From the NCBI RefSeq assembly GCF_000172995.2, contig NC_014735.1, positions 150,001 to 182,000 of the forward strand: a DNA stretch of 32,000 bases, in the 5' to 3' direction. Position 1 is the stretch's first letter; the number at the start of each line of letters is the position of its first letter. The notes under the pieces were generated by a model. It was given only the letters and a program-made list of their open reading frames with translations, had not been told where the DNA came from and did not search any database. A program made the position numbers and the translations under genes. This document shows positions 4,204-29,400 of the stretch, piece after piece. The stretch is from Halogeometricum borinquense DSM 11551. Lineage in GTDB: Archaea > Halobacteriota > Halobacteria > Halobacteriales > Haloferacaceae.

Positions 4204-4494
4204 TTAGTTATTGAATCCGCCGCGGAAGTCGGAGATAACATAGCCGTCGTCTTCTTTAACCTCATCGACGCATGCTCCTTTCTCGTGATAGCCGTCATCG
4301 AGATTGCGGTCGTAGAAATCAGTCTTCCGGAAGTTGGAGTTGGTTTCTCTAGGATGGTAGCTCCCTCCGTCGTGCTCCTGGAGGGCCTTCTCTATTCCGG
4401 GGCGAAGACCAGTGAAAACAGCGTTACTCTGCAGGAACGTCCCCGAGTACGGCCAGGGCGCCGATACTATCGGTCGCGAAGAACACGGCCCCAT
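4204..4494 (-). CDS. small acidic hypothetical protein (uncertain; possibly a gene remnant)
   Basis: The C-terminal ~70 aa (LRPGIEKALQEHDGGSYHPRETNSNFRKTDFYDRNLDDGYHEKGACVDEVKEDDGYVISDF...) look haloarchaeal. The only in-frame ATG/GTG/TTG is at 4494, which lies 71 nt inside the upstream PQQ-like gene. Confidence 0.3.
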   Translation of the reverse strand: MGPCSSRPIVSAPWPYSGTFLQSNAVFTGLRPGIEKALQEHDGGSYHPRETNSNFRKTDFYDRNLDDGYHEKGACVDEVKEDDGYVISDFRGGFNN

Positions 4495-5665
4495 CGGCGA
4501 GTATCGGTCGGATTGTCAGCGCGTGGTATCCATCTAACGCATAGTTCCAACGCACGTCTCCTGTCTCGCGGTCGAACGCGGTTACCGTCTTGCCGTATGT
4601 GGAGGAAACGGACTCGGGTTTGTCGACTATGGAGATTACCGTCTCGATCCCGACGCATACGCCAAATGCCGAATCATCGTGCGCCGAATCGTCGTACTGC
4701 CACTGCGTCGTTCCAGTCTCAATGTCGACCGCGAAAAGGCCCCTCTCGTAGGTCGCCACGAACGCGGTACCCCCGTCCGCGGCGATCGTCGTCAGGCTTC
4801 CCAGCTCATCGCTGACCAACTCGATCTCACTGCGTCGGTCTCCTGTCTCCCGGTCGTGGACGACGAGCGTGTTCCCGTCCACGACGAGAACGCCCTGATC
4901 AGTCGCCACCGGATCCCCGTCCGACGGATCTTCGAGTGCTGTCGTCCAGCGGATCGTTCCGTCGTCGAGAGCCAGTGCTACGAGGCTGTCCACACCGTCG
5001 ACCCGCCCGATAGTGTAGACAGTTCCGTCGTAGATTGCGGGCGTGTTCAATTGTCCTGTTATTTCGCCTGTTTCCCAGCGCCGTTGCCCGTCTTCCGCTT
5101 GGAAAGCCTTGAGACCGTCGCTATACGGGACTATCACCGTTCCCGATCGTTCGTCCGCAGCGAGCAGTTCAGCGGAGGATCCCAACCCACTCGGTTCCAA
5201 CCCCGCAAGCGAACGCTGCCAAACGATATCACCGTTCTGTGGGTCAAGGGCGACGAGCCTTGAATCATGTGCCACGATGAAGCGTCCGCCAACGAGGACC
5301 CGTCCGTTACTATCCTTCCCTCCGAGCGTTGTTCGCCACTGTTCGCTGCCGTCCTGTGCGTCGAGGGCGATGGCACTTCCTTCCTTGCTGGGAGCGAAAT
5401 TCGTGGTATAGACGGTACCATCGGCGATCACGGGCTCCCACTGTGTGAACGCCTCCGAGGTCCACACCAGGTTTCCTCGCGACGGTGCGGAGACGTCCGA
5501 CGCGAATGTGTTGGCTGCGTCGGCCCCGTGCTGTGTCCAGGACCCCTCGGGGACCTCCGGCAATGGCGTGTCCGCCCTGCCTGACGAAAAGGTCGACAGG
5601 CATCCCGAAAGTGCTGCTGTCCCGGCGCAAAATGTCGTTAAAAACGCTCGTCGGTCCATACTCAT
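4424..5665 (-). CDS. PQQ-like beta-propeller repeat lipoprotein (BamB/PQQ-enzyme-repeat family) with Tat signal
   Basis: N-terminus MSMDRRAFLTTFCAGTAALSGC has a twin-arginine motif plus a lipobox. Repeated motifs follow (G.VY...dG.l.AlDa.tG...W, e.g. GTVYTTN, LVALDPQNGDIVWQ, VYTIGRVD, GTIRWTT). The start overlaps the upstream gene's stop as ATGA. Confidence 0.85.
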   Translation of the reverse strand: MSMDRRAFLTTFCAGTAALSGCLSTFSSGRADTPLPEVPEGSWTQHGADAANTFASDVSAPSRGNLVWTSEAFTQWEPVIADGTVYTTNFAPSKEGSAIALDAQDGSEQWRTTLGGKDSNGRVLVGGRFIVAHDSRLVALDPQNGDIVWQRSLAGLEPSGLGSSAELLAADERSGTVIVPYSDGLKAFQAEDGQRRWETGEITGQLNTPAIYDGTVYTIGRVDGVDSLVALALDDGTIRWTTALEDPSDGDPVATDQGVLVVDGNTLVVHDRETGDRRSEIELVSDELGSLTTIAADGGTAFVATYERGLFAVDIETGTTQWQYDDSAHDDSAFGVCVGIETVISIVDKPESVSSTYGKTVTAFDRETGDVRWNYALDGYHALTIRPILADGAVFFATDSIGALAVLGDVPAE

Positions 5666-6108
5666 CTTTCAAATGTCATTCTAATATGCTTTCTCAAATA
5701 GCACGAGAGAGAATTATTGCGCTGTCCAGATTCAGTCTGACCGAACGGGTATATTGGCCAACAGTGCGTTAATTCCCCACGAGTGCACGCACCGGCGTAC
5801 CACATGCAGGGGTATGACCCGTTTTCCACGATGTCGTCCCATGCATCGCGATCATCCGTGCCGTTCTCAAGGGTCGTATTATAGATGTCTTCCGAGTATT
5901 TGTTCAACTCCATCTTACACGTTTCTTTCATCGACCCGTCCCACTGTGGACTCTCCGTCCCTCTGTTGAACTCTTCGATGAGATCTGTGGACGTATCGTT
6001 GGCGTTTTTCCAGTTGTCCTCGACAAACCTCTTGTATGTGAAGTGAATCAAGCCCTGCGTGTACAGCACCTGCAGTCCGATCACACCGGTGTGGAGGGGA
6101 TGAGACAT
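5662..6108 (-). pseudogene. zinc-dependent phospholipase C-like domain protein, C-terminal portion only (N-terminal half missing or frameshifted)
   Basis: In the ORF frame, the sequence ...TTFHFLQDMSHPLHTG...LIHFTYKRFVED matches the H-x-L-x-D-x3-P-x-H ... H-x2-Y-x2-F-V-D pattern of the Zn_dep_PLPC family (B. cereus PLC LHYLGDVNQPMH...HSKYENFVD). The listed Met at 6108 lies between the Asp and His ligands. Protein-like upstream sequence continues in another frame up to ~6290. Confidence 0.5.
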
Positions 6109-6430
6109 GTCCTGTAGGAAGTGGAACGTCGTCCCACTTCCTGCATATAGGTGTAGTTTCCGACATCAGCCTTCTCCCAGTGACTTTGTGCGTCCCTTGG
6201 CGCCGCACCTTCAACTTCGACTTCGATGTGGCCAAACCCTGCCGGCAGGAGTGCAGCGAGGATTGGAAACGCTTTGATTTTTCTCGTCCTATAACATACA
6301 TCTAGTGGGGGCTACCCCGGCGGTGTTCACCGCTCGCCTCCACGTTGCCGGTTAATCGTTTTTGCAATTTTCCCAAATAAGTGTGAGGGAGATCCCCATC
6401 TCAAATCAATCTAACAAAATGTATTCGAAA

Positions 6431-6465
6431 TAACTATAATGTCGAACAGTTGACTGTATATATAA
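6431..6465 (+). promoter_or_regulatory. candidate TATA-box region for the first ABC-2 operon
   Basis: AT-rich 'TAACTATAAT' (6431-6440) and 'TATATATAA' (6457-6465) lie 14-48 nt upstream of the ATG at 6479. This suits a short-leader or leaderless haloarchaeal promoter; which element is used is unclear. Confidence 0.35.
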
Positions 6466-6478
6466 GGCCCTTCCAGAG

Positions 6479-7420
6479 ATGTTCAACAACTGGTATCCAA
6501 TAGCAAAGCATGAATTTAGCGAGGTCGTCAAAAGCCGTCTTGTGTGGCTTCTCACTGTTCCGATTGTCCTTGACGGGTTGCTGAATGTACTCACAAGTCA
6601 AACTGCAATACAACACCTTGGGAACCTCCGATACATTGCCTCGTTTCAACGGGGTATGGGACTCGTAATCCCCATTGCCTGCATTATTTTAGGAGCGCGG
6701 GCCGTGGGCGGAGCCCGCGGAAAGGGATTCCTAACAAATACGGCACTGCAACCCGTCTCACGAGGAGATGTTCTTGTTGGGAAAGCCGCGGGCCGGACCA
6801 GTGGACTGCTCGTTCCGCTCTCGACAGGGCTTGCTCTCGGATACATACATGGTGCGATGAATGGGGACATACCTCCGTTGCTTCCCACAATTGGATTCTG
6901 GCTCGCAAATATCGTCTATTTAGGTTCCCTCATGTTCGCGATGATCGGGCTATCTGCCTTCTTCAAGGAAGCACTTGCGCCTGCTGGCTTTGCTTTCATA
7001 CTTGGTGGCGGAACGTTCCTCTTCTACGATGAACTACTCCCCATCCCACTCAAAGCAATTTACGGTGTCACAAAAGCTAGCCCTAGCACCAGTGGGGTTA
7101 GCATGACTTGGGAACAGCCAGATGCTCCACTAGGGCTCGTAGCATTTTTGAGCCGTCTCCCACCCACAAATGCGCATCAGGCCCTCACAAATTGGCCGCT
7201 TGGGCTTCCAAACTCTGATTCATTATCGATATTCGTCATTAGACAACTTGAACCAGATTTTATCGCTCCAAGCGTGGTGATACTTGGGGATGCCTACGGT
7301 GGGCAACCGGTCCCATTCTACCTTCATCCACTCGTGAGCGGGGTCGTCTTACTCGTATTTTCAACTGCTGTCTTCGCGCTCGGCTACTACACATTCAATA
7401 ACACTGATTTCAACCAATAA
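6479..7420 (+). CDS. ABC-2 family transporter permease (NosY-like)
   Basis: 313-aa polytopic protein. The N-terminus (IAKHEFSEVVKSRLVWLLTVPIVL) matches the usual ABC-2 permease start. Its stop abuts or overlaps the ATPase gene start at 7420. Confidence 0.8.
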   Translation: MFNNWYPIAKHEFSEVVKSRLVWLLTVPIVLDGLLNVLTSQTAIQHLGNLRYIASFQRGMGLVIPIACIILGARAVGGARGKGFLTNTALQPVSRGDVLVGKAAGRTSGLLVPLSTGLALGYIHGAMNGDIPPLLPTIGFWLANIVYLGSLMFAMIGLSAFFKEALAPAGFAFILGGGTFLFYDELLPIPLKAIYGVTKASPSTSGVSMTWEQPDAPLGLVAFLSRLPPTNAHQALTNWPLGLPNSDSLSIFVIRQLEPDFIAPSVVILGDAYGGQPVPFYLHPLVSGVVLLVFSTAVFALGYYTFNNTDFNQ

Positions 7421-8322
7421 TGACTAACGCTATCACGACCACGGATCTTGCAAAGGATTATGGAAATATTCGTGCCGTTGATGCGATAAATCTCGCAATT
7501 GAGCGCGGAACTGTCTTTGGATTTCTTGGACCGAACGGTTCCGGGAAATCCACCACAATTGGAATGCTACTAGGACTCATACATCCAACGGGGGGAACAG
7601 CAGCACTTGCAGGTCACGACCCTCAAGAGGATCCCGTGTCAGTCCGCTCAAACGTCGGCGTTCTTCCTGAGGGCTTTACACCCTATCCATCACTGACTGG
7701 CCGTGAGCACCTTACCTACATCGCGGAACTCCGGGGAGAAGAGATTGACCCCGAAGCGGCGCTTTCAGAGGTCGGCTTGAAGGACGCACAGGACCGTGCT
7801 GCGACAGCGTATTCAAAAGGGATGACGCAACGTCTCGGGCTAGCGATGGCGCTCATCGGCCGTCCACCCATCCTTGTTTTGGACGAACCATTCACTGGAT
7901 TGGATCCAGATGGGGCACAACTGGTTCGAGATATCGTAATGCGAGAGCGTGAGCGAGGGACGACGATTCTCTTCTCGAGTCACATTCTTGGGCAAGTTGG
8001 GATGCTCTGCGATGAAATTGGGATTCTCTCACAGGGAAGACTTGTCACGGAAGGATCATTGACTGAACTGCAGTCACAGGGGGACTTACTGACTCACACC
8101 CAACTCGAAATCGCAACCCACTCCGACAGCGCGGTAGAGGTCTTAACAGACGCAGAATCAGTCCAAGAAGTAACAAAGAAGGACAAAACGGTTGTGGTAG
8201 AACACGACTCGAACACGTCCCACTTAGCCCTTGTCCGCCAACTCGAGGCAAACGGAATCACAGCCGTTAACGCAACAGTCCAAGCTCCAACTGTTGAAGA
8301 TATTTACCGTGAGTTTACATAA
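7420..8322 (+). CDS. ABC transporter ATP-binding protein (ABC-2 / NosF-CcmA-like subfamily)
   Basis: Walker A GPNGSGKST, signature YSKGMTQRLGLA, Walker B VLDEPFTGLD and H-loop SSH are present. The product is 300 aa. Confidence 0.93.
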   Translation: MTNAITTTDLAKDYGNIRAVDAINLAIERGTVFGFLGPNGSGKSTTIGMLLGLIHPTGGTAALAGHDPQEDPVSVRSNVGVLPEGFTPYPSLTGREHLTYIAELRGEEIDPEAALSEVGLKDAQDRAATAYSKGMTQRLGLAMALIGRPPILVLDEPFTGLDPDGAQLVRDIVMRERERGTTILFSSHILGQVGMLCDEIGILSQGRLVTEGSLTELQSQGDLLTHTQLEIATHSDSAVEVLTDAESVQEVTKKDKTVVVEHDSNTSHLALVRQLEANGITAVNATVQAPTVEDIYREFT

Positions 8323-8360
8323 CGGCGATTGCCCACGTCAAATGCTGTTACTCATATCCT

Positions 8361-9149
8361 TCATTCACTCTTTTTGACTAGTTTATGTACTTTGCTCCCC
8401 GCTTGATGCTGGTTGAAGAGTTGCCGTGCCTTCTTTACTGCACCTGTTTTTGAGTTCTCGATGAGTCCATGGAGTCCTCCATTTTCACGATGAACACTCA
8501 ACCAAAATTTTTGTGAACCAACGATAATCAGTCCAAATTGCGGTAACCTTGGTGATATATTGATCTCCACAGAGTGATTGTCCATCTTCTCATACTCTGA
8601 CTCATATTTTTCTTCCATTATTTTTATAATATCACTGTGAATAAGAAGTTCAATTGAATTACCTTTTTCTACTCTTTGACATAGGAACTGGAGCTGTTGT
8701 GGAAATAAGACAGGCAGCATAGCCTGAATTGGCTCACCATCTGGTACCGATGAAATATCCTTAAACGGAGTTGCTGGTGCACGTTGATTTGCCAACGTTA
8801 CTTCAGAACCATGAAGTAAACTCATTCCAAGTTCTGATTTCTCTGGAAGGACAGAAAGTAATTTACTCGAATTAGAGAGCGTTTTATATGTTTGAGAGAT
8901 ACTGTCAAATTGTCTGTAAGCAAGTTTTCCAAACCGCGTGAACTCACAGCGACTACCACGACGAAGCAGAATATTTTCTGCTTCAAGCTCTCTGATTGCA
9001 CGGTCTATCGTCGATCGAGAGACGGTTAATTGATCGTAGAGATCCCTCTTATCTTTGACACCATTATCAACCTGTTCTAAAAGTCGGTGCCGGGAGAGAA
9101 TTACTTGCAATGGGGACAAATGGGACGCAGTTTTCATAACCAGCCACAT
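8361..9149 (-). CDS. winged-helix transcriptional regulator with a DUF1724-like C-terminal domain
   Basis: 262 aa. The N-terminal HTH-like segment is KRDLYDQLTVSRSTIDRAIRELEAENILLRRG. Length and C-terminal layout fit archaeal ArsR/DUF1724 regulators. An alternative start is Met5 at 9137. Confidence 0.65.
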   Translation of the reverse strand: MWLVMKTASHLSPLQVILSRHRLLEQVDNGVKDKRDLYDQLTVSRSTIDRAIRELEAENILLRRGSRCEFTRFGKLAYRQFDSISQTYKTLSNSSKLLSVLPEKSELGMSLLHGSEVTLANQRAPATPFKDISSVPDGEPIQAMLPVLFPQQLQFLCQRVEKGNSIELLIHSDIIKIMEEKYESEYEKMDNHSVEINISPRLPQFGLIIVGSQKFWLSVHRENGGLHGLIENSKTGAVKKARQLFNQHQAGSKVHKLVKKSE

Positions 9150-9281
9150 ATTCCAATCATAGTGTATTATTATTTGCTGTTTTTGAGATTAGATATTAGT
9201 AGCTGTGACCTCAGTTGATTCGTCATCCTGCGCGGCACGGAGCAACATCGGAAGCGAGTGGCGCATATCCACTATGCTAAC

Positions 9282-9941
9282 TCCAGTCCAACTGGAATTC
9301 TGAACGCAAGCTACCATATTCAATCCTTACAAAAATACTATTGTAATGGTAAACTAGATAACACGACCAACGTCCACGTACCCCACGATCTGGCTTGCTC
9401 GATTTTACTCGCAGACATGCCGCAAGCTCAGCATACGACGGTTAGGGATGTTTCCGCAAGAACTCCATTAGTAAACAAACACGGTATCGGTGACAAACGT
9501 CGCTTCGACCCTCCACACCCCATGTATTTTTCAAATCCGATGCTAATAGGGCAGAGGTATTCACATATATGTCCATTATACCGTCGTATTGTGGGGCTAT
9601 AATAGTATAAATACTAATTTGTAACCAGATATTGTCAGGATACAGTGATATAGATGGAAAATATATCTAAAGGAGAATAGTATCTGCATCTTCTATTTTC
9701 TAACTGTAGATTGCTACAATATAGTCATAGATAGCGTTTTAGTAATGGCGGACCACAATAGGATTCGTCAGATACGATGTCGAAAACGCTGATAGCATCG
9801 ACGTGTGTGAAGTCGTTGTTGAGGCGATGTGTATTCGGCCGAGTATGATACTGACCGCTCGTCACTCTATCTCGAACGCTCTCTGGCCGGCGGCATCGAC
9901 TGCGTGAGTTCAGAGAGCATGTCCGTCGCAAAACTCGTGAT
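9282..9941. repeat. direct repeat copy A (~660 bp); contains a detached copy of the last 75 nt of the gene at 15110-15748
   Basis: It aligns by eye with 14524-15184 at an offset of 5,242-5,243 bp. The last 205 bp (9737-9941) differ at a single position (9847). The remainder is roughly 80-85% identical with small indels. Confidence 0.9.
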
Positions 9942-10008
9942 GCCAATCTAAACAATTCCGTCTCTAGTGTAGAAAGATATATACTTATCAGAACCAGTCT
10001 ATTATTTA

Positions 10009-11991
10009 GTGAACAAATCCAAGTTAGTCTCGTGGCTTGGTAACGCCAGCAGTAGCGTTCGAAGAGTTCAAGCTCTCATACAGCGCGAATTTTGGCTACT
10101 TGTTCGATTGAAGTGGCTCTGGATCGTTACTCCCGTTGTTGTATTGGTAGGTAATTCATTTATTACTCCCTTTGGTAATGAAGTCACAGTGACTGGTGGA
10201 TGGATTGCCGTAGCGGCATCAGAAACAGCAGTTGCCTTTGCTTCGTATTTTGCCGTTCCTGTGGCGTTTCGAAGTATAATTCACAGTCGTCAATCAGGAA
10301 ATATCCGAATCACTGCTGGAACGCCACTAACGCGCAGTGAGATTATCATTGGAACTGCCTTCGGGCGAGGACTCGCACTCTTCTGTCCTGTGCTGATGGG
10401 TGTGGTAGGTACTGCTATCTTAGGCTGGAACCATTATGGGACATTACCGGTCTTTCTACTCATTGGGTACACTGTCGTAACAGCCCTCTTTATACTTGCA
10501 GTAGTCGCTACCATCACTGCCATCTCAGCGGTTGTTGAATCCACTGTTCATGCAGTTGCTTGTAGTACTGTCTGCGTAATTGTGATGGCGTATTGGACAG
10601 ATATTGTCGCGGCAATCCACCAATTTATAACTTCTCAGAATGTCTCTATCGGACAACCTCCCCAGTCAGTCATTCTCCTTGTCGCCCGACGTCTCACCCC
10701 GATTAACTCATTTTTTGTTGTGGTGAATACACTAACTGGTGTTGGAAATACAGACAGTAATTTCGTAGATTCAATACAGTATGGGTTGCAGGGTGAGGCT
10801 GGCTATCATGTTGGAGCATTATTTGGATCTGGATATCCTATCGTCTTGTCGCCGTGGGTTTCGGTACTAATTCTTATTGCGTGGATTATAGTTCCAATCG
10901 CATTTGCATCAGCAGTCTTTAGTCGTCTTGATTTGCCAGTTCAGTCTGATAAGTTTCGGAACATATTTAGTGAATCTGTCCCTCGAATCTTCCGTCGTAC
11001 TTCGTACCGTCTTGGATTTATTCCATTTCGGGTCGTGGAGTTCGTAATGGGTGCGGTTAATTCCGACCCAACGTCTGAGTCGTGGCTCCCGATAGCACGT
11101 CGAGAATTCACTGATATCCTCCGTTCACTCGCGGCACCGCTCCTTTTTGGGCTTGTGGTTATGGCATATCTCTACTCCCTTACAACGATATCTCCAAATA
11201 TATCCTCCCAAATCGGACAGCAACTTCCAGCAGCTGTTGGTCAACAGGCAGTGACTATCTTTGGACTCGTTGGACCAGTTTTCCTCGGATACCGCTCGAT
11301 CGCAGAAGAACGTGAATCAGGCACGATTCGCTATACTGCGGGGCTCCCTCCCTCTCGAACAAGTGTCTTAATTGGTAAAGGTGCTGGACTCTGGTTCGCA
11401 CTCTCAGTTATAATCGGCTATGCACTTATTGTGTGCTTCGCCATTGGGTCAATACAGACAGGATCATTCCCAAGTGTTGCTTTTTCAGGTACACTAGTTG
11501 CAACAATTATGTACATTGGAACAAATACGGCTATCGTGGTCGCACTGTCAAGTTTCTTCTCCCGAGGTGTTGCCGCCGTGTCGGCAGCGATAGTCTACCT
11601 GTTCTTTGTTTTGTTCTGGAGCGGAATTCATCCTATTATTTGGGACTCAATCTTTGGATATTCATATATTATACAACCACCTCCACCAGATAGCTTATAC
11701 TTCCTTACTCGACGACTCTCCCCAAGACAGGCAGTGACTGTCTTGTGGAATTGGGCAATAGGAGTCGGCAACTCTGGGTCTAGCTACACCATGGTATTAC
11801 ATATTGAAAACGCCGTTACGAGCCCAAATCTGAACGCGCTCACACACTCATTAGTCGTGGACGTATCATACTCAGATGGTCAAGTTCCGATTATTCTATC
11901 ACCCGTAGCATCGGTGGGAACCCTTGCTGTATGGGGGATTATTCCATTTGCGCTCGCGTTGCGTCGATTCCAAACAAGTGACCTTACATAA
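10009..11991 (+). CDS. fused tandem ABC-2 family permease (two permease modules in one 660-aa polypeptide)
   Basis: The ABC-2 N-terminal motif occurs twice (RVQALIQREFWLLVRLKW near the N-terminus and LPIARREFTDILRSLAAPLL mid-protein), each followed by about six hydrophobic helices. The start is a GTG at 10009, with no early ATG. An ATPase gene follows 6 nt downstream. Confidence 0.8.
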   Translation: MNKSKLVSWLGNASSSVRRVQALIQREFWLLVRLKWLWIVTPVVVLVGNSFITPFGNEVTVTGGWIAVAASETAVAFASYFAVPVAFRSIIHSRQSGNIRITAGTPLTRSEIIIGTAFGRGLALFCPVLMGVVGTAILGWNHYGTLPVFLLIGYTVVTALFILAVVATITAISAVVESTVHAVACSTVCVIVMAYWTDIVAAIHQFITSQNVSIGQPPQSVILLVARRLTPINSFFVVVNTLTGVGNTDSNFVDSIQYGLQGEAGYHVGALFGSGYPIVLSPWVSVLILIAWIIVPIAFASAVFSRLDLPVQSDKFRNIFSESVPRIFRRTSYRLGFIPFRVVEFVMGAVNSDPTSESWLPIARREFTDILRSLAAPLLFGLVVMAYLYSLTTISPNISSQIGQQLPAAVGQQAVTIFGLVGPVFLGYRSIAEERESGTIRYTAGLPPSRTSVLIGKGAGLWFALSVIIGYALIVCFAIGSIQTGSFPSVAFSGTLVATIMYIGTNTAIVVALSSFFSRGVAAVSAAIVYLFFVLFWSGIHPIIWDSIFGYSYIIQPPPPDSLYFLTRRLSPRQAVTVLWNWAIGVGNSGSSYTMVLHIENAVTSPNLNALTHSLVVDVSYSDGQVPIILSPVASVGTLAVWGIIPFALALRRFQTSDLT

Positions 11992-11997
11992 CACATC

Positions 11998-12900
11998 ATG
12001 ACCGCTATTGACATCACCAACTTCACGAAAGAGTACAAATCAACAACAGCCGTCGATGGCCTTAACCTCAGCGTCAAAGAGGGTGAAGTTTACGGGTTTC
12101 TCGGCCCAAACGGAGCAGGTAAGTCGACAACAATTGATGCCCTAATGAACTACATTCAACCAACTAGTGGACAAATAGAGATATTTGGATTAGATGCACG
12201 TGAGGATGCATCACAAGTTCATAGCCGTGTTGGAATTCTCCCGGACCAATTCGACGTGTATGCGCGCTTAACCGGACGTCAACATATCGAGTTTGTTGCC
12301 AATACTAAAGGAGTGGACATTAATACCGATACCCTACTTAATCGGGTTGGACTCGAGGATGCAAAGGATTCGCCTGCTCAGAGCTACTCAAAAGGTATGC
12401 AGCAACGGCTCGGATTAGCGATGGCACTTGTCGGAGACCCAGACCTTCTTATTCTTGATGAACCATTCTCAGGATTAGACCCATTTGGAACACAACTGGT
12501 CCGTGACATCGTTATGACACAGACCAACCGTGGTACAACAGTCTTCTTTTCGAGTCATGTTCTTGAGCAAGTCGAACGTGTCTGTGGCCGTATTGGGTTG
12601 TTGGACGATGGCCAATTAGTAGCAGAAGGCAAGCCACGAGAAATTCGCGCAAGTGCAGATGTCAAACCACGGCTCGTCGTCGCACTTGCGCAGCCGAAAA
12701 AGGGACTTACTGAGGTCCAAGACATTGATTCCGTTTCTGACGTTAATATTGATGGGGACGGCTATTTGAGTGTGGTCAGCGAGTCAGCACACGTCTTCAC
12801 AACAGTTCTAAATCGGCTTGATAGCACTAACGAGATACAGTGGTTTGATGTTGAATTCGGAACTATCGAGGATGCTTTCATTGAAAATACCAATTCATAA
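11998..12900 (+). CDS. ABC transporter ATP-binding protein, paralogue of 7420-8322
   Basis: Walker A GPNGAGKST, signature YSKGMQQRLGLA, Walker B ILDEPFSGLD and H-loop SSH are present. It is also 300 aa and shares blocks with the first ATPase (e.g. QLVRDIVM, YSKGM.QRLGLAMAL). Confidence 0.93.
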   Translation: MTAIDITNFTKEYKSTTAVDGLNLSVKEGEVYGFLGPNGAGKSTTIDALMNYIQPTSGQIEIFGLDAREDASQVHSRVGILPDQFDVYARLTGRQHIEFVANTKGVDINTDTLLNRVGLEDAKDSPAQSYSKGMQQRLGLAMALVGDPDLLILDEPFSGLDPFGTQLVRDIVMTQTNRGTTVFFSSHVLEQVERVCGRIGLLDDGQLVAEGKPREIRASADVKPRLVVALAQPKKGLTEVQDIDSVSDVNIDGDGYLSVVSESAHVFTTVLNRLDSTNEIQWFDVEFGTIEDAFIENTNS

Positions 12901-13021
12901 TAATTGATATTGGTTCCGCAGTAAAAATAGAGAGCCAGAGTGGAGTGGTAGTCTAGTTCATAATTTCCCAATCATCGATTGCTACACACTGCTACTTGCT
13001 CGATCAGTTATTGTTACAATA

Positions 13022-13046
13022 AGGAGGTTTATTATCTCCTACTTTT
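13022..13046 (+). terminator. hairpin plus T-run downstream of the second ABC-2 operon (candidate terminator)
   Basis: AGGAG (13022-13026) and CTCCT (13036-13040) form a 5-bp stem around a 9-nt loop, followed by TTTT at 13043-13046. This lies ~120 nt after the stop at 12900. The signal is weak. Confidence 0.25.
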
Positions 13047-13062
13047 CAAAGACTGTTAAGAC

Positions 13063-13852
13063 TATGCATCATCACTCGCATTCATTTCCCAATGAGGCGT
13101 TTTACTCTCCTTTGGATTGAGTGAGAATGGCCCAAAGTTATATGCAATATCTACTTCATCGTCATCATATGTGTGGACGTACTCTCCATTAATGTTGTAA
13201 CTACCAGTGTATTGATCTCGGTTTATTGCTTTTATTTCGGTACTGAAGGCGGCATTGACACTTTGATCAGTACCATCTGTGGGTGTTCGTTTTTCGTCAA
13301 ATTCTACTCTTACTCCAAACCTTTCATTTCCTCGTATTCAATTCGATCATTTTCATATTTTACATTCTCTCGGCTCTCATCAACTGCCTGCCAATAGTCT
13401 TGAGACCAAGATATAGCCGCTGAGTCTTTTGATCCAACTTTTTGAGTGAAGTCACCAGCGTCGTTATTCCATTCACTGAGATTCCATGAGATTGTGGCGT
13501 CATAAACCGGTGGAATATTCTTTTCAGGATTACCCTCTTCAATTTCATTTAGACTCAACCAAAGATCGGTTTTATTATCCTCACTTGGACTTCCATATCT
13601 ATCCGTACTCACATCTCCCTCTTTAAACGAAGGAACGCCTCGGGCCATATGATATTTCATGTTGTGCTTATCCATGAACGCTTTTGCTTCGTCAATTTTG
13701 TGTTGCCAAAGTAATTTTCGCACCTGACGAATTGGAACATCATACTCCGATTCGTTGGACTCGGCTGTAACAACGGGGAGGGTTGAGATACTACAAATTG
13801 CTGCGCCTGTTCGATACAGGAACTTCCGACGGGTATGGGTCTTTTGACTCAT
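13063..13852 (-). pseudogene. Tat-signal secreted protein of unknown function, apparently interrupted by a frameshift near 13300-13330
   Basis: The likely start is the ATG at 13852 (MSQKTHTRRKFLYRTGAAICSISTLPVVTAE, a twin-arginine signal). The frame stops at 13310. An ~85-codon acidic continuation without a start codon (…VEFDEKRTPTDGTDQSVNAAFSTEIKAINRDQYTGSYNINGEYVHTYDDDEVDIAYNFGPFSLNPKESKTPHWEMNASDDA) is open in another frame from ~13338, overlapping the end of the first frame, down to the stop at 13063-13065. Confidence 0.55.
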
Positions 13853-13928
13853 ACATTCCAAGATAATGTTCACTACCCTATAATAGTTATGAGAAAACAA
13901 ATAATTCTGACACTTCTGCAATCAGAGA

Positions 13929-14351
13929 CTAATGACCGACTGTTACAACATGTATGTGTGTGTTATTTTCATCTTTTTTTATTTCTATTACTATGATATT
14001 CGATCTATGGTCTGAATCCACTCTCCAGATCCCATCCTTAGATTTCAAACCATCTGACTCAACAATATACTTATAATCACTAGCAGGTACAACATCTTCT
14101 TTGCGGATCTGTTCATTCGGATCTACTGAGAAGGTAGACTCGTACACCACTTCGGAATTCTTTCCTTCGTTTTTGAGAATCACGTCAATAACCTGTTGAG
14201 TAGTTGTTTCGTTACGTATTAGAATTGATTGAGATGAATTTAACTCAGATGTACCTATACAGCCGGAAATCCCGACTATAGAACTAGCTGTTAATAAAAT
14301 CAGCCTTCTCCTACTAATCCCGTTGCACATATTGTATTTGAATTTGCTCAT
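13929..14351 (-). CDS. small secreted lipoprotein of unknown function (Tat-like signal plus lipobox)
   Basis: The signal is MSKFKYNMCNGISRRRLILLTASSIVGISGC. The mature part is ~110 aa, beta-rich and Ig-like, with a His-rich C-terminus (THIHVVTVGH). It lies 7 nt upstream of the next minus-strand gene. Confidence 0.7.
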   Translation of the reverse strand: MSKFKYNMCNGISRRRLILLTASSIVGISGCIGTSELNSSQSILIRNETTTQQVIDVILKNEGKNSEVVYESTFSVDPNEQIRKEDVVPASDYKYIVESDGLKSKDGIWRVDSDHRSNIIVIEIKKDENNTHIHVVTVGH

Positions 14352-14523
14352 GTTGTGAATAATAACACCAAATATCTGGAGATAACTAAGTGTGTCGGCT
14401 CTAGGGATCTGTTGAATTATTCAGACAATCGACGTATGCGTCGTGGACATCTATAATTAGATCCCAACTACTTTGTCTGAACCAAGCTACAAAAGCTGTC
14501 TGTAGGTGAGGATAAGATCCGAT

Positions 14524-15184
14524 TCCAGTCCAACTGGAATTCTGAACGCAAGCTACTATATTCTATCTTTACAAGAATAATACTGTAATGGTGGAATAGA
14601 TAACACGATCAACGTCCACGTATCCACGATCCGGATTGTCTGATTTCACTCGCTGGCACGCCGCAAGCCCAGAACACGACGGTTGGGGAGGTCTCCAGGA
14701 GAACTACATTAGTAAACAAACACGGTATCGGTGACAAATTTCGCTTCGACCCTCCACACCCCATGTATCTTTCCAAACACGATGATAATTTGGCCGAATT
14801 ATTCACACATATACCGATTACACCGCCGTATTGCGGGATTATAATAGTATAAATACTAATTTAGAACCGAATATTGTCAGAATACAGTGATATGGGTAGA
14901 AAATCTATCTAGAAAAGAATTAGTATCTACAACTTCTATTTTCTAATTGTAGACTGCCATAATATAGTCATGAATCGCGTTTTAGTAATGGCGGACCACA
15001 ATAGGATTCGTCAGATACGATGTCGAAAACGCTGATAGCATCGACGTGTGTGAAGTCGTTGTTGAGGCGATGTGTATTCGGCCGAGTATAATACTGACCG
15101 CTCGTCACTCTATCTCGAACGCTCTCTGGCCGGCGGCATCGACTGCGTGAGTTCAGAGAGCATGTCCGTCGCAAAACTCGTGAT
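14524..15184. repeat. direct repeat copy B (~661 bp), contiguous with the intact gene at 15110-15748
   Basis: See copy A. The left edge begins in a palindrome (GATTCCAGT-CCA-ACTGGAATT, 14521-14541). The right 75 nt are the true 3' end of the gene at 15110-15748. Confidence 0.9.
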
Positions 15185-15748
15185 ACGTTCGTGGTCTTCG
15201 ACTGCTGTTCGGAGTGTTTCGTAGTACGCTCGTTTGTTGAGGGACGTGAACGGGTACACCGCACGGCACAGGACATGCTCATCTAGGCTTCCGGTGATCC
15301 GAAACTGACTCCACTCGGTGCGTTCCGATAGCGCGGGTTTGACACGTTTTGCACGCCGTTCGAACCGGTTTCGAAACTGTTGGTGGAGTGTTTCGGCCGA
15401 GAAATCAGCACTCCCCGTTTCGCAGTCCTCTAAATGAAGTTCGAACTGCAACGTCCCGGTCGTATACTGTTCTGCGGTGGGGTGGTGTTCGAAGTGAAGG
15501 TCGAGGCCGTATTCGCGTCCAGATCGCCAGACGTGTGGCTGCAGTCGTCCCCACGGCTTTCCGGAGTCGCTCCACTCCCACGTTCGATCACCGGTTTCCG
15601 GAGGGTACGTATCCAAATAGTCGCTCCACTCGTGCTGGAAGACTTCTCGAACGAACTGATCGATATCGTCTTTGGTGCCGATATTTACGACTTCCCCGTC
15701 GGCACTATCTCTGTGTTTACGTCCCTCTTCCTCTCTCCGAATAGGCAT
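15110..15748 (-). CDS. conserved-looking acidic hypothetical protein (212 aa)
   Basis: The ORF is G+C-rich with haloarchaeal composition. A TATA-like element lies ~28 nt upstream of the ATG. No family was recognised. Confidence 0.7.
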   Translation of the reverse strand: MPIRREEEGRKHRDSADGEVVNIGTKDDIDQFVREVFQHEWSDYLDTYPPETGDRTWEWSDSGKPWGRLQPHVWRSGREYGLDLHFEHHPTAEQYTTGTLQFELHLEDCETGSADFSAETLHQQFRNRFERRAKRVKPALSERTEWSQFRITGSLDEHVLCRAVYPFTSLNKRAYYETLRTAVEDHERITSFATDMLSELTQSMPPARERSR

Positions 15749-15771
15749 GCCACTAATTCACTTCTTCTATC

Positions 15772-15780
15772 ATATAAATA
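15772..15780 (-). promoter_or_regulatory. TATA-box candidate for the gene at 15110-15748 (leaderless spacing)
   Basis: Plus-strand 'ATATAAATA' (minus-strand TATTTATAT) is centred ~28 nt upstream of the ATG at 15748. Confidence 0.45.
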
Positions 15781-15793
15781 CACATACATTATA

Positions 15794-15819
15794 GTGTAAC
15801 AACCATACCTTTGTTACAC
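15794..15819. promoter_or_regulatory. perfect 9-bp inverted repeat GTGTAACAA-N8-TTGTTACAC in the divergent intergenic region
   Basis: Read directly at 15794-15802 and 15811-15819. It lies between the gene at 15110-15748 and cetZ. The geometry suits a dimeric transcription-factor operator. Confidence 0.4.
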
Positions 15820-15984
15820 CAATCTTGCGGCAATGTATCTGCTATGAGAACATGTCTCTCTCAGTACATAGTTTGTGCGATGATCGATAGCTGACGCACG
15901 TCTCGAAAAATCAGAGACGACAGGCTAAGAACTCGGCTGAAGTGCCGGACAAATTCAGAAGATTGAACAGAGCACCTGGTATAT

Positions 15985-17172
15985 ATGTCATCCATGCGTC
16001 TCGTGTTGCTCGGTATCGGTCAGGCCGGTGGGAAGATTGTTGACCGGTTTCTCGAATATGAACGACAGACCGAGCAGGACTTCATCGAAGGAGCAGTCGC
16101 GTTCAACACTGCACGCGCTGATCTCAAAGAACTGTCTCACGTTCCTGAACACCATCGCCAGCTATTCGGGGAGGTTGATGCCAAAGGCCACGGCGTCGGT
16201 GCGGACACTGAGTTCGCCGCCGACCTCGCTGAGCAAGACGCACAACAACTCATCCGGTCGCTAGACGATATCCCGACCTCTCGGGCCGATGCGTTCCTCG
16301 TCGTCGCGGGATTGGGCGGTGGAACGGGGAGCGGTGCCGCTCCGGTACTCGCCAACGAACTCGACCGAATCTACGAAAAACCCGTCTACGGACTCGGAGT
16401 TCTCCCCGCTTCCGAGGAAGAGGATGTCTTCGCGTACAACGCCGTCCGGTCGTTCCGGACACTTGTCAATCACGTTGATAACCTCCTCTTGTTCGACAAC
16501 GATACGTGGCTCAAATCCGGCGAGGAAGTCACGGAAGCGCACGACCGTCTCAACGGCGAATTAGTCCGTCGGCTTTCGGTGCTATTCAACGCGGGCGAAG
16601 TTACCGACGAGAACGTGGTCGCCGAGAGCGTCATCGATTCGAGCGAAATCATCAACACGCTCCGTGGCGGTGGCGTTTCGACGATTGGCCACGCATCGAG
16701 TACGCTGCCAACCGACGACTCGTCGGGCTTCAGCCTCGGTAACCTGTTTGGCTCGTCTGACAACGAACCCGACGAAATCGAGGCGATGAATCGAATCACC
16801 ACTGCGGCACGGAAAGCGACGCGCGGACGGCTGACGCTTCCCTGTGACGTCTCGAGTTCTCAACGAGCGCTCGTGGTTACGAGTGGTCCGCCCCAGTGGC
16901 TGAGTCGAAAAGGTATCGAGCAGAGCAGACAGTGGATCGAAGAGGAGACCGAAAGCATGGAGATTCGTGGCGGTGACGACCCGCGCTCCGATTCAGACCG
17001 GGTTTCGGTGACAGTGCTGTTCGCTGGCGTGACGGACATCCCTCGAATCGAACAGTTGCGAGAACGGGCGCTTAAAGCGGCCGAGTCGAGTGGTGACTCC
17101 GACGACCTCTCGGAGACGGAACTCGATGATTTCGCTGATAGTTCAGTCGATGGCTCGGATCTGAAGCGCTAA
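15985..17172 (+). CDS. cetZ: CetZ, archaeal tubulin/FtsZ-superfamily cell-shape protein
   Basis: N-terminal LLGIGQAGGKIVDRF, tubulin signature GLGGGTGSGAAPVLA, and DNLLLFDNDTW with NAGEV closely follow the recalled Haloferax CetZ1 pattern rather than FtsZ. An alternative start is the ATG at 15994 (MRLVLLGIGQAGG). Confidence 0.9.
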   Translation: MSSMRLVLLGIGQAGGKIVDRFLEYERQTEQDFIEGAVAFNTARADLKELSHVPEHHRQLFGEVDAKGHGVGADTEFAADLAEQDAQQLIRSLDDIPTSRADAFLVVAGLGGGTGSGAAPVLANELDRIYEKPVYGLGVLPASEEEDVFAYNAVRSFRTLVNHVDNLLLFDNDTWLKSGEEVTEAHDRLNGELVRRLSVLFNAGEVTDENVVAESVIDSSEIINTLRGGGVSTIGHASSTLPTDDSSGFSLGNLFGSSDNEPDEIEAMNRITTAARKATRGRLTLPCDVSSSQRALVVTSGPPQWLSRKGIEQSRQWIEEETESMEIRGGDDPRSDSDRVSVTVLFAGVTDIPRIEQLRERALKAAESSGDSDDLSETELDDFADSSVDGSDLKR

Positions 17173-26413: not shown

Positions 26414-29400
26414 ATGAGGCTCGGGAATAGCAACCGCACCAAACTGATAAGTCTGGTGCTAGTGGGAGTCGTGGTCTTCTCCACAGTCGTCGGACCTGTG
26501 TCCGCGGCTTCCGCGTTGTCAGGTGAACAGGATTCTACTCACAGTGTCGCCGTTCCGGGGAGTGGAACGGCGCCGCTTTCCGTGAGTGATGATCTCAAGA
26601 TAAATGCGACAGAGAATATCTCAGTCTGGCAGTATAGTCTGTTGCCGCTACGAGCGCAGACATTTAGTACGCCAGATGTGTCCGACGTTCAGAAACCCGC
26701 ACACTCGATTGAGAGTACTTCTGTGAGGATTAAGACGGGAGACCTATCCACATCGCTGGATAAACAACAGTTCCACGTTTTCACACGCGGGGAACCGATC
26801 ACGTCGAAGTTCTTCCAAGACGGGTATCAGGACGTCATCGACGATGAGCGCGTTCAGACAGTCGCTATCCGACTGAAAGAGGGTGCCGAGAAACCCGATT
26901 CGATCGAGCATATCAGTCGATACATCACTGACAGCGAGAACACGCATGCTCGAATTATCAATGACACGACGGGTGAACCCGGTAAGAACTACTTCCGATT
27001 TACACCCCAGAAATCCGGTCAGTACGTCTTTGCAGTGGCGATAGTCGAGAACGGGAGCCAACCTGACCATCCCGGCCTCGTTCAGATTTCTGACGGTGAT
27101 CTCGAAGCCAAGAGCAACATTACCATTGTTGGCTTTAATCACTACATCGTGCGTGAGGGTGCGTCCTCGGTCAGTCATCAACCGGTCGCCGCTACCGGCA
27201 GCAATGTCTCGGTACACGTGGACGCCTCGCAGAACCTCAGCGCGTCCGACGTGTCTCATACCGTTCTCTTGCTCAACGAAACCGAAATCAGCGACCAAAG
27301 CCAGGAAATTCGAGTCAACGGGACGGAAATCGAGGCTATCGAATCTTCTGTCTCTGGTGTTGAAGGCGTCGTCGATATCGAGGATGGTACGAACATCCTC
27401 GGAAGCGAACTTCCCAAAGGCCAGTACAACGGAAATACGAACGTTATCTCGCTGCTCGAACGGCTGACTGATAATTCGACGAACGTCACTTCGACCGGCG
27501 ATACGACGCTGTACTCGTCGTTGACCAGTACCGTTGGTGGCCCGACGGAGACTGTCTCGCTGCAAACGAACGAGAATTTCTCGACCGGCGAGTACTCGAT
27601 TATTCACTTTGCAACGGCGCAGGACAGCACCGAAACCATCACGTCCGAAAGCACGATCAAACTCGTCGAAGGCGTCCAACTGAACCTCGCGGCGAACAAC
27701 ACGACGGTTCGGCAGGGGACGCCAGTCACGTTCACGGTGACCAACGAAGAGGATGAGCCGGTTGCCAACGCCAACGTGACCTACGCTGGCGAGACCTACA
27801 CGACGGGCGCTGACGGAACCGTGACGTTCTCCCCGAAGGAGTCCGCCACGGCAACCGTCAGTAAGGAACCGGTCGGTGACACGGCCTATATCGGTGACAG
27901 CGTCGCTCTCTCCGTTGTGGCTCCCGCGTTCGAGCTGACCGAGTTCGATCTCTCCACGACGGAACTGTCGAGCGACGAGACGCTGGTCGTCAACGGTACC
28001 GTTCAGAACGTCGGTGACTTCGAGGGCTACTTCACCTTCGAACTCAAGCGCGACGGACAGATCATCGACGAGCAGACGGTTCAGGTCGCTCCCGGGCAGA
28101 CCGCTGCTGCCTCCTTCGATGTGACGTTCGACCAGACCGGCCAGTTCGATATCGGTCTCAACAGTCTGGCTCCGAAGACGGTGACTGTCACTGGTATTCC
28201 GGACATCGAGTACTCCAACTTCGATGTCAGCTCGACCGACGTTGACCTCGGTGACAGTGTCACGGTGTCCGCGACCGTCGAAAACAACGGCTCCGGTCCG
28301 GGCGAATACAACGCCTCGTTCGTCAAGAACGGCGATATCACCGACTACCAGAACGGAACGCTCGGCGCTGGTGAGTCGAAGACCATCTCGTTCACCAAGA
28401 CGCTCGCGCCCGGCACGTACGACCTCGGAATTGCCGGACTCGGTCCCGCGACGGTGACCGTTAACGCACCGGCGAACCTCGAATACTCGAACTTCGAGGT
28501 GTCTCCGGATACCGTCGCACTGGGCGAGTCCATCACCGCGAACGCGACGGTCGAAAATACCGGTGGTCAGGCTGGCTCCTTCCTCGTCGCCTTCGCTGTC
28601 GATGACGAGGTTCTGGAGACGAGAAACGTCTCCTTGGACAGCGGCGAGACCACGAATGTCTCGTTCACCGCGGACAGTCTCGGTATCGGCGACCACACGG
28701 TTCGCATCGGCTCGCTCGATGCGAAGACCGTGACCGTCTCCGCTCCCGACCTCGCGGCGACCGTGACGAACACGCCGTCGGAGGTCTCTGAGGGCGTCGT
28801 TCCGGTCGAAGCGACGGTCTCGAACGTCGGGAACGCCGAGGTGACCGATGCGACGGTTGTCCTCGACGCACAGCCTGAAGGCGGGTCCAACTACACTCAA
28901 CTGACGAACGAGAGCGTGACGCTCTCGCCCGGCAGTTCGACGACGGTGACTGCTGAACTCACCCGTGCGGAAGCACGGAACTACACCGTTCGCGTCCGTG
29001 CCGATGCGGACGATCAGTTCACCGAACCGGACGAACAGAACAACATTGACGAACAGTTGGTCACTGGTGGTCCGCTTATCACCGGGACCATCAACACGTC
29101 TGACGGCGACGCGGCGGCCGACGACGTCGTGTACAGCTTCGTCCTCGACGGACTGAACGTGACCGCTGTGAACGGTGCCGTGACCAACGACAACGGGACG
29201 TTCTACGTCCCCGCGAACGCGACGACCGAACAGAACGTCGGCTACCGGCAGCTCAACCTCTCAGCTAGCCAAGCCGATGATCCGGTGTTCGAACGCGACG
29301 GTTCGCCGGACATCTACGCGCTGACGACGGTCCCCGCCGTGACGAACGTCTCGAACATCGGGACGTTCGACCTGCCGAACGCCGGTGTGCTGAACGTCAC

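Follow-up and report, generated by a model that had tools for sequence, protein, structure and literature searches.

Results

Organization of the locus

The stretch of DNA analyzed here (the window, 32 kb) is part of plasmid pHBOR01, a megaplasmid of Halogeometricum borinquense DSM 11551. It contains a low-GC hypervariable island in which two copies, A and B, of a sequence referred to below as R lie in direct orientation on either side of a four-gene cassette; further strain-specific indels occur near the island. The main features, in window coordinates, are:

4792-5702: end of a 148-aa gene and first ~290 codons of a PQQ beta-propeller gene; replaced in wsp4-type strains
5700-15800: low-GC hypervariable island, 46% G+C against 59% in the flanks, enclosing both repeats, the cassette and the neighboring modules
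6479-8322, plus strand: ABC-2 permease 1 and ATPase 1, 99-100% identical between DSM 11551 and wsp4
8361-9149, minus strand: regulator gene g, encoding an HVO_A0261_N/FilR1-type transcription regulator; linked to the distal end of copy A in every strain
9281-9297: 17-bp palindrome TTCCAGTTGGACTGGA(G) at the distal edge of copy A
9282-9941: repeat copy A (R_A); distal part 9282-9733 (A-type), proximal part 9734-9941 near-identical to copy B
9867-9941, minus strand: orphan duplicate of the last 24 codons and stop of gene a; no ORF continues upstream
9941-9942: junction J1, where homology ends sharply and the orphan fragment meets the region upstream of the fused permease gene
10009-11991, plus strand: fused double ABC-2 permease, 660 aa (Pfam)
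11998-12900, plus strand: ABC ATPase 2, 300 aa, 45% identical to ATPase 1 (7420-8322)
13310-13921, minus strand: 203-aa gene for a secreted protein with a Tat signal (TRRKFL); missing at the wsp4 and ELS19 loci
13929-14351, minus strand: gene h, a 140-aa Tat lipoprotein (SRRRLIL...SGC) with a weak Ig_halo match
14523-14539: palindrome TTCCAGTTGGACTGGAA, the same as at copy A, at the distal edge of copy B
14524-15184: repeat copy B (R_B); distal part 14524-14976 (B-type), proximal part 14977-15184; joined to intact gene a
15110-15748, minus strand: gene a, the "host gene," 212 aa, of a small family

The direct repeats had been noticed in an initial annotation made from the sequence alone, and their extent (~660 bp) and their offset of 5243 bp at the right end were recovered exactly by repeat search and MAFFT alignment; further left the offset is 5241-5242 bp because of single-base indels. 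The alignment also agrees with the annotated ends: copy B closes on the right with 75 nt (15110-15184) that form the final 24 codons and stop of an intact gene a, and copy A carries the same 75 nt as an orphan, diverging at 9942. The repeat is thus real over 660 bp, as annotated; what had been overlooked is that its identity falls into two tiers (Fisher p = 3.5e-12; overall identity 88.6%). The 208 gene-proximal columns (9734-9941 and 14977-15184) contain one mismatch (99.5% identity), and the other 459 alignment columns (~455 bp) contain 75 mismatches or gaps, including single-base indels (83.7% identity). The switch, from 99.5% to 82%, is abrupt and lies at alignment column 260/261. No third copy was found within the window.

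R consists of the 3' end of gene a and its long non-coding downstream region. These ~0.66 kb include strongly conserved blocks, and the palindrome at the distal edge sits exactly where regulator-linked and h-linked copies stop being homologous. An RNA gene within the repeat was considered and rejected: Rfam gave no match at gathering thresholds in the window and none at E ≤ 1 over 14400-15300, no tRNA genes are present, RNAalifold on six R copies found 0 and 1 compensatory pairs on the two strands, and folding of the gene a 3' region was no stronger than that of shuffled controls (z = 0.59). Protein-coding function was likewise rejected, no ORF being kept in both copies, which differ by single-base indels; minus-strand ORFs of 104 and 76 aa over the near-identical part are an off-frame artefact.

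Gene a has no sequence match in Pfam, NCBIfam or PDB. Its AlphaFold model is mediocre (pLDDT 66.7), and a Foldseek search of this model against PDB returned nothing at E ≤ 0.001. In relatives of ~425 aa, a PD-(D/E)XK nuclease domain precedes the homologous region. The C-terminus of gene a is native, since a 61%-identical homologue aligns with it through residue 201.

Between the copies, at 9942-14523, are the four genes (~4.6 kb) that the initial annotation had placed there: the fused ABC-2 permease, its ATPase and two genes for secreted proteins. No relatives of the fused permease were found outside the DSM 11551 and ELS19 cluster. The protein with the TRRKFL signal is likely to start further in, giving ~180 aa (13310-13852).

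An assembly artefact as the source of this structure was ruled out by an independent Logan contig (run ERR481281), which matches window positions 9912-14553 at 100% and covers both cassette junctions. In the AOHT draft of DSM 11551 the 208-bp piece is flanked by single-N joins, a sign of repeat collapse.

Single repeats, hybrids and breakpoints in other strains

Four conspecific strains, including DSM 11551, were compared, and they present three structural haplotypes. The others are wsp4 (CP048739), its close relative GCA_040679015 (44 substitutions from wsp4 in 20.6 kb) and a strain called ELS19 here after its ELS19_ locus tags. No outgroup locus was found: the closest DUF1616-anchored loci, from Halogeometricum pallidum and others, show only 50-57% identity and lack synteny.

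The search for strains with one repeat and no cassette, suggested by the initial annotation, was positive. In wsp4 and GCA_040679015 the order is gene a, a single full 662-bp repeat and the regulator; the cassette is missing. About 5 kb away, in a truncated PQQ gene, these strains have 990 bp comprising a partial B-type repeat and gene h in place of 4792-5702, without homology at the junctions. Gene h is always linked to the B-type distal repeat, and in wsp4 has moved with it into the PQQ gene. ELS19 has the orphan-fragment junction J1 in common with DSM 11551 and a different cassette content, with a truncated regulator copy, an IS5 element and an unrelated 198-aa gene in place of the 140-aa and 203-aa genes. 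The IS5 element is found only in this strain, away from the repeat ends. J1 is identical in DSM 11551 and ELS19 and missing from wsp4-type strains, which indicates one historical event; no microhomology was found at J1 or at the wsp4 replacement junctions.

Hybrid repeats occur in both reciprocal polarities, and so the repeat copies do recombine. The wsp4_R1 copy is B-type to about column 480 and switches at about 480-500; ELS19_R1 begins as A-type, as far as column 540, and is B-type over columns 546-721. One repeat of ELS19 has lost 327 bp, and the strain has a patchwork repeat (A, B, wsp4-type and DSM-type in succession). Its first repeat is followed by a truncated regulator with the wsp4-type allele, and its second by a DSM-type regulator. 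At least seven repeat positions have breakpoints (columns 55, 109/436, 261, ~338, ~480-500, 540-546 and 722). The two wsp4 copies share strain-specific variants (94.9% identity over columns 341-480), which shows intragenomic conversion.

Allelic divergence peaks at R and decays with distance from it. Gene a is 99% identical between strains; the 5' part of the regulator gene is unusually divergent, the wsp4 allele being ~8% from that of DSM 11551. Within the 208-bp segment, copies A and B differ by 0.5%, no more than strain differs from strain (0.5-1%), as would fit two haplotypes with a common conserved flank. The last ~120 bp of wsp4_R1 are ~17% different from both A and B, and so do not make it a clean B-to-A recombinant; together with the divergence in the regulator 5' part, this argues against wsp4 being simply a DSM-like genome that recently lost the cassette by pop-out.

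Searches for a mobile element

Pfam searches found no integrase or transposase among the ORFs of 9282-15184 in DSM 11551, and all substantial ORFs of 4424-17172 gave only ABC-2 permeases, ABC ATPases, a wHTH regulator, a PQQ propeller, CetZ and proteins of no family. NCBIfam, PADLOC and PHROGs added no recombinase: the only PADLOC match was to a generic ABC ATPase, and PHROGs had no match. There are no terminal inverted repeats, the best candidates (20-21 nt at 80% complementarity) being at chance level. An insertion sequence, a composite transposon and a MITE were each rejected, for want of a transposase and terminal inverted repeats and on the size of the duplication, 660 bp. Also rejected was an origin from a mobile element, phage or plasmid, as collections of plasmids, phages and viral contigs gave no match.

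An exact 20-mer of R that is invariant in six copies was absent from a species-genome collection in which H. borinquense itself seems to be absent or masked, so further copies of R in the DSM 11551 genome are possible. Three matches to R in metagenomes were all chance 23-mers. The same ends were not found in other genomes or replicons, and ELS19 has J1 but other cargo. These results point to the cassette being cargo rather than a self-mobile element.

Discussion

Origin of the repeats and cassette

The reading that we favor, at somewhat better than even odds (about 55%), is that this arrangement was produced by ordinary homologous recombination between copies of R, following one illegitimate junction, in a low-GC hypervariable island. 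Features in line with it are the long direct repeats, 208 bp of them with a single mismatch, the existence of an allele free of the cassette, and hybrid repeats with variable crossovers. The R copies would be the common left end of two alternative gene modules in a strain-variable island. In the lineage of DSM 11551 and ELS19, the module with the second ABC transporter (in DSM 11551, R_B, the 140-aa lipoprotein, the Tat protein and the ABC-2 exporter) would have come between gene a and the series R_A, regulator and first ABC transporter. Besides homology, this would have needed one illegitimate join, J1 (9941|9942). Possible routes are a Campbell-type single crossover of a circular intermediate inside the 208-bp near-identical segment, or an equivalent unequal exchange between two genome copies with different haplotypes in a polyploid cell; either would duplicate the last 75 nt of gene a and the next 133 nt. 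Later homologous recombination by the host and gene conversion between R copies could then have yielded single-repeat alleles, hybrids and module swaps, with no part played by an element-encoded recombinase. We infer a RadA-type pathway and this order of events, and DSM 11551 should still be able to loop the cassette out.

The drop from 99.5% to 82% identity may alternatively mark a tract left recently by gene conversion or repair synthesis. Taken further, this leads to a less likely alternative, in which no cassette was inserted and the single-repeat strains arose by deletion. Two copies of the distal ~450 bp of R would long have existed, one upstream of the regulator gene and one upstream of the 140-aa gene. 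Repair of a break close to copy A would have used copy B as template, with synthesis continuing past the older homology, across the 208 bp and 75 nt into gene a, and its end joined illegitimately at J1, beside a cassette that was already there. The abruptness with which 1 mismatch in 208 gives way to ~18% divergence at column 260/261 fits such a tract, as does the lack of microhomology at J1, and intragenomic conversion is seen in the wsp4 copies (94.9%, columns 341-480). Moreover, the linkages of B-type distal R with the 140-aa gene and of distal R with the regulator are found in both DSM 11551 and wsp4, so that the two distal copies are older than the strain split. What this model does not readily explain is ELS19, where the two regulator allele types look like tandem haplotypes rather than one conversion tract; its predicted precursor, with the permease upstream region abutting A-type distal R and no 208 bp between them, is in no genome.

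The initial annotation had explained the repeats by Campbell-type or site-specific insertion of a circular element, or as a tandem duplication junction. A recombination footprint with a duplicated gene end has held up, and the two more specific proposals have fared less well. Duplication in situ of a unit comprising R, divergent genes and an ABC-2 ATPase and permease, with subsequent divergence and J1 as the duplication junction, would account for the parallel layout of the two units (R, one or more genes on one strand, then a convergent ATPase-permease pair) and for the paralogy of their ATPases and permeases. It is improbable, however, since the proteins are only 45% (ATPases) and 27% (permeases) identical, as against 84-99.5% for the repeat DNA, and so modules and repeats cannot be of the same age; the genes between R and the ATPase are also unrelated (a regulator in one unit, the lipoprotein and Tat protein in the other), and the similarity is not the uniform one of a recent tandem duplication. 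The least probable of the readings considered is that a non-autonomous island integrated site-specifically at the gene a 3' end, with the 208 bp as attL and attR and a recombinase encoded elsewhere. It would be in keeping with the duplicated 3' end beside an intact gene, the near-identity of the proximal 208 bp and the cassette-free allele; but neither cassette nor island has an integrase, there is no tRNA, similarity continues for ~455 bp past the putative att site, and the repeat as a whole, 660 bp long and mostly ~84% identical, has crossovers without a fixed core. Breakpoints in the other strains are scattered rather than at the edges of the 208-bp segment, cassette content differs between DSM 11551 and ELS19 despite their common J1, and the element is in no other species or replicon searched.

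A very improbable reading is that R, rather than serving passively as homology, is a dedicated recombination module, used for integron-like shuffling of cassettes between genome copies and strains without a known recombinase. Cassettes of regulator with first ABC transporter, and of lipoprotein with second ABC transporter, would be swapped at the 17-bp palindrome, where the downstream modules differ. The neighboring gene a, with a domain that relatives carry fused to PD-(D/E)XK nucleases, might promote the breaks. If true, this would amount to integron-like cassette shuffling in a haloarchaeal megaplasmid.

Comparison with known systems

In pop-in/pop-out, host recombination acts between direct repeats flanking an insert, and loss leaves a single, possibly hybrid, repeat. 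The Campbell-type form of this is used for gene replacement in Haloferax volcanii (PMC3024317, PMC12186497). DSM 11551 is similar in having repeats of a few hundred base pairs around an insert, one on an intact gene and the other on a truncated copy, in the single and possibly hybrid repeat associated with loss, and in requiring no element-encoded recombinase. It differs in being natural rather than engineered, with a circular donor that is hypothetical, and in that the repeats are 84% identical over two thirds of their length, with later conversions and replacements.

Integrase-mediated islands and proviruses, such as tRNA-gene islands, typically duplicate the 3' end of the target gene and leave the gene intact. 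Here too a 3' end is duplicated, gene a is intact, and the insert carries an orphan fragment at its far end. Unlike such islands, this one has no integrase, a non-tRNA target, a repeat far longer than an att core and mostly diverged, variable breakpoints, and a cargo that is not a conserved element.

Strains of Haloquadratum walsbyi differ by repeat-bounded indels and deletion-coupled insertions (PMC3119063). Shared with these are direct repeats that bound a segment in the strain having it, against one copy in the strain lacking it, the setting in low-GC variable regions, and unrelated sequences at the same position without junction homology (990 bp in wsp4 versus 4792-5702). The Haloquadratum repeats are usually shorter than 20 bp, as against 660 bp in DSM 11551, a length that makes classical homologous recombination likelier than a short-repeat mechanism.

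Homologous replacement and mosaic recombination have been described between lineages of haloarchaea (PMC3542582), and gene conversion is reported to act efficiently between the genome copies of polyploid Haloferax (PMC11276520). The R copies, mosaics whose segments of some hundreds of base pairs belong to different allele types, and the divergence peak that fades away from R resemble the products of such exchange. That exchange is allelic, between species or genome copies; exchange between R copies, in contrast, also involves non-allelic copies on one replicon and changes gene content.

Implications

The event proposed here is of a known kind, and does not reveal a new kind of mobile element. 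R itself is a small non-coding region with an unusually deep peak of allelic divergence, and may merit study for a regulatory role. The locus offers a clean natural example of gene-content turnover in a haloarchaeal megaplasmid island, in which three haplotypes in four strains can be related through an illegitimate junction, exchange between 660-bp repeats, gene conversion, IS insertion and deletion-coupled insertion, and natural pop-out in a polyploid archaeon could be tested on it.

The repeat pair and its surroundings

A repeat search of positions 8000-17000 and of the whole window recovered one long direct-repeat pair, 9282-9941 (copy A) and 14524-15184 (copy B), which together with MAFFT alignment upholds the initial annotation on this point. 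The pair breaks up into four blocks without gaps, whose starts are spaced 5241-5243 bp apart, and there is no second comparable direct-repeat pair elsewhere in the 32-kb window. In the MAFFT alignment, similarity between the copies sets in and ends sharply at both edges; single-base indels distinguish the two. The right-hand 75 nt of copy B are the final 24 codons and stop of gene a (212-aa ORF, 15110-15748, minus strand). A 61%-identical homologue of gene a can be aligned through residue 201, so the C-terminus is native and copy A carries an orphan duplicate of the gene end, as had been proposed. The cassette between the copies has the contents first assigned to it.

Genes of the cassette
within 9942-14523: fused double ABC-2 permease
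within 9942-14523: ABC ATPase
within 9942-14523: Tat-signal protein (TRRKFL)
within 9942-14523: 140-aa Tat lipoprotein, gene h (SRRRLIL...SGC)

The repeats lie in a low-GC island (~5700-15800; 46% G+C vs 59% in the flanks) on a 362,194-bp record labelled “plasmid”, taken to be pHBOR01. Two ABC-2 exporter modules stand side by side there, at 6479-8322 (ABC1) and 10009-12900. An independent Logan contig from run ERR481281 is 100% identical to 9912-14553 and thus confirms both cassette junctions. A draft of the same strain (AOHT01000044, our L006) contains one 208-bp copy more than the window does; its single-N joins (L006 9635, 9844 and 15068) surround the 208-bp piece in copy A and fall inside copy B, and the extra copy is a collapsed-repeat scaffolding artefact of the draft, not of the window. 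Farther along, a ~30-nt motif beginning TCACCGCGAACGCGACGGTCGAAAA occurs four times within 28260-29756 (77-100% identity, 273-675 bp apart), inside the large minus-strand ORFs 26744-28900 and 29261-30748, where it probably encodes a repeated protein domain.

A feature absent from the earlier description is that repeat identity is two-tiered. The 208 alignment columns nearest gene a (9734-9941 / 14977-15184) hold a single mismatch between the copies, and the remaining 459 hold 75 mismatches or gaps (83.7% identity; Fisher p = 3.5e-12). At the far end, a 17-bp palindrome, TTCCAGTTGGACTGGAA (9281-9297 and 14523-14539), terminates each repeat copy in every strain, at the very point where copies linked to the regulator gene g cease to be homologous to those linked to h; it is a candidate operator of the wHTH regulator next to it, or may mark a boundary of recombination. 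Invariant blocks are present inside the region of deep divergence described below.

An RNA gene in the repeat is rejected: Rfam gave no family at gathering thresholds, nor any for copy B with its flanks when the limit was E<=1; no tRNA or tmRNA was found; and six aligned copies gave no covariation support for RNA structure on either strand. The copies have no ORF in common. The repeat has no match in plasmid and phage collections, viral contigs or one-genome-per-species contigs, and three metagenome matches were chance 23-mers. PADLOC returned only a generic ABC-ATPase match and PHROGs none, and in a set of 5.8 billion proteins no relative of the fused permease turned up beyond its own cluster. 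The family of gene a is very small, with 16 relatives at E<=1e-3 in a set of 1.84 billion representatives; the gene itself has no match in Pfam, NCBIfam or PDB, and its AlphaFold model (pLDDT 66.7) no significant Foldseek match. In relatives of ~425 aa the part homologous to gene a follows a PD-(D/E)XK nuclease domain (PF14281) on its C-terminal side; gene a is an orphan-like neighbour of the repeat, and the nuclease fusion occurs in distant relatives.

Haplotypes among strains

Three haplotypes were compared across four strains.

Gene order in the three haplotypes (R, repeat; R_A and R_B, copies A and B; a', orphan gene-a fragment; J1, junction 9941|9942; 1 and 2, ABC1 and cassette modules)
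H1 (DSM 11551): a, R_B, h, Tat protein, ATPase2, permease2, J1, a' fragment, R_A, g, ATPase1, permease1, 148-aa gene, PQQ gene
H2 (ELS19, GCA_004150395): a, full R, truncated regulator copy, IS5-family element, unrelated 198-aa gene, ATPase2, permease2, J1, 54 bp of a', R_A minus 327 bp (window 9561-9887), full regulator
H3 (wsp4, CP048739; GCA_040679015): a, one full 662-bp R, g, ATPase1, permease1

The H3 strains, which differ by 44 substitutions in 20.6 kb (SRR26441317 is the read set of the GCA_040679015 strain), have a single repeat and no cassette between gene a and g: this is the single-repeat, cassette-free allele that the initial annotation predicted. About 5 kb away they carry a partial B-type repeat (corresponding to window 14901-14524) with h. 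Here 912 bp (window 4792-5702), comprising the last part of the 148-aa gene together with ~290 codons from the start of the PQQ beta-propeller gene, which is thereby truncated, are swapped for 990 bp made up of that repeat and h (15955-16942 of wsp4 locus L003). Neither junction has homology, and the replacement is a deletion-coupled insertion. H3 also has a clean extra segment of 1151 bp (L003 14143-15293), encoding a 217-aa Tat-signal protein, at window 6361|6362, which DSM 11551 is without.

J1 is common to H1 and H2 and absent from H3, and even the two strains that carry J1 differ in what lies between their repeats. The strain designated ELS19, after its locus-tag prefix ELS19_, has flanks 99-100% identical to DSM 11551; its IS5-family element, with a frameshifted transposase, truncates the first regulator copy after ~76 codons (11584-12500 of the ELS19 locus, L041), and ~1.4 kb of unique DNA with the 198-aa gene follows. 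In wsp4 the locus occupies positions 3.01-3.04 Mb of one 3.99-Mb record (CP048739.1), and in DSM 11551 it is on the 362-kb plasmid; the wsp4 record is close in size to the summed DSM 11551 replicons, and the arrangement could reflect replicon fusion or an assembly choice.

Mosaic repeats and the divergence peak

Site-by-site comparison of six repeat copies revealed hybrids of both polarities. The first wsp4 copy is B-type through ~column 480 and then, over its last ~120 bp, about as far from A as from B (83% identity with either); it does not represent a clean, recent recombination product of the two copies in DSM 11551. The first ELS19 copy combines four parts: columns 55-540 are A-type and 546-721 B-type, 723 to ~1000 carry the wsp4 regulator-flank allele, and ~1017-1085 the DSM allele. 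B-then-other (wsp4) and A-then-B (ELS19) are the two products expected from exchange between the two repeat copies. The two wsp4 copies have common strain-specific variants (94.9% identity in columns 341-480), so that intragenomic conversion between them is indicated by their sequences. Breakpoints lie at columns 55, 109/436, 261, ~338, ~480-500, 540-546 and 722, with no single core.

DSM 11551 and wsp4 have ABC1 genes that are 99-100% identical; from there identity sinks toward the repeat through 97, 95.5, 91, 88 and 81%, and returns abruptly to 99% in the 208-bp segment. The sharp divergence peak covers the distal repeat and the regulator 5' end (window 8361-9733 vs L003 10770-12200; g occupies 8361-9149, minus strand), and this deep peak is confined to ~0.7 kb of non-coding DNA plus that 5' end. 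The 208-bp copies are 0.5% apart within DSM 11551, the same segment differs by 0.5-1% between strains, and gene a is 99% identical between strains.

Possible origins of the repeat-bounded cassette

The repeat, haplotype and mosaic data are consistent with a hypervariable island in which the host's homologous recombination worked on long repeats that had partly diverged. J1 is an illegitimate join that arose a single time, in the ancestor shared by DSM 11551 and ELS19. H1 and H2 could most simply have arisen by Campbell-type integration of a circular intermediate, through one crossover in the near-identical 208-bp segment, or, formally equivalent, by unequal exchange between two genome copies with alternative haplotypes; the latter is supported because ELS19 has two different regulator alleles in tandem. 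No usable outgroup was found to polarize the locus. In a serious alternative, two copies of the distal repeat existed beforehand, as the upstream regions of g and of h, and an over-extended repair tract added the rest, copying the 208-bp segment and 75 nt of gene a beside copy A: the abrupt identity switch at column 260/261 speaks for it.

Of the specific origins suggested initially, insertion of a site-specific mobile element fails, every defining feature tested having come out against it: the cassette and island ORFs of DSM 11551 include no integrase or transposase, and neither a tRNA nor a single breakpoint core marks the site. Plain tandem duplication is contradicted by a mismatch in age, the paired ATPases being 45% and the permeases 27% identical in protein, against 84-99.5% for the repeat DNA; taken singly, the two halves of the fused 660-aa permease show 21-27% identity to the 313-aa permease. 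The recombination footprint and the cassette-free allele thus stand, and the site-specific element does not. With directly oriented segments that are nearly identical over 208 bp, in a group of organisms whose recombination is known to be efficient (PMC11276520), it is a reasonable inference that DSM 11551 may still be able to loop out the cassette.

Relation to known processes

The DSM 11551 structure works as a natural counterpart of the pop-in/pop-out intermediates of Haloferax genetics. The 990-bp replacement in H3 is of the same kind as the deletion-coupled insertions known from comparison of Haloquadratum strains (PMC3119063), and the DSM 11551 structure groups with changes on record for haloarchaea: indels bounded by repeats, deletion-coupled insertions and mosaic homologous replacement (PMC3119063, PMC3542582). 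Least ordinary are the ~0.7-kb divergence peak, the invariant blocks, the position of the palindrome and the orphan-like gene a with its nuclease fusions in distant relatives; taken as a set, they give a small chance that the repeat is a purpose-built site for cassette exchange, though no tested result requires that. The locus introduces no new element, and is best regarded as a further instance of an already known process.
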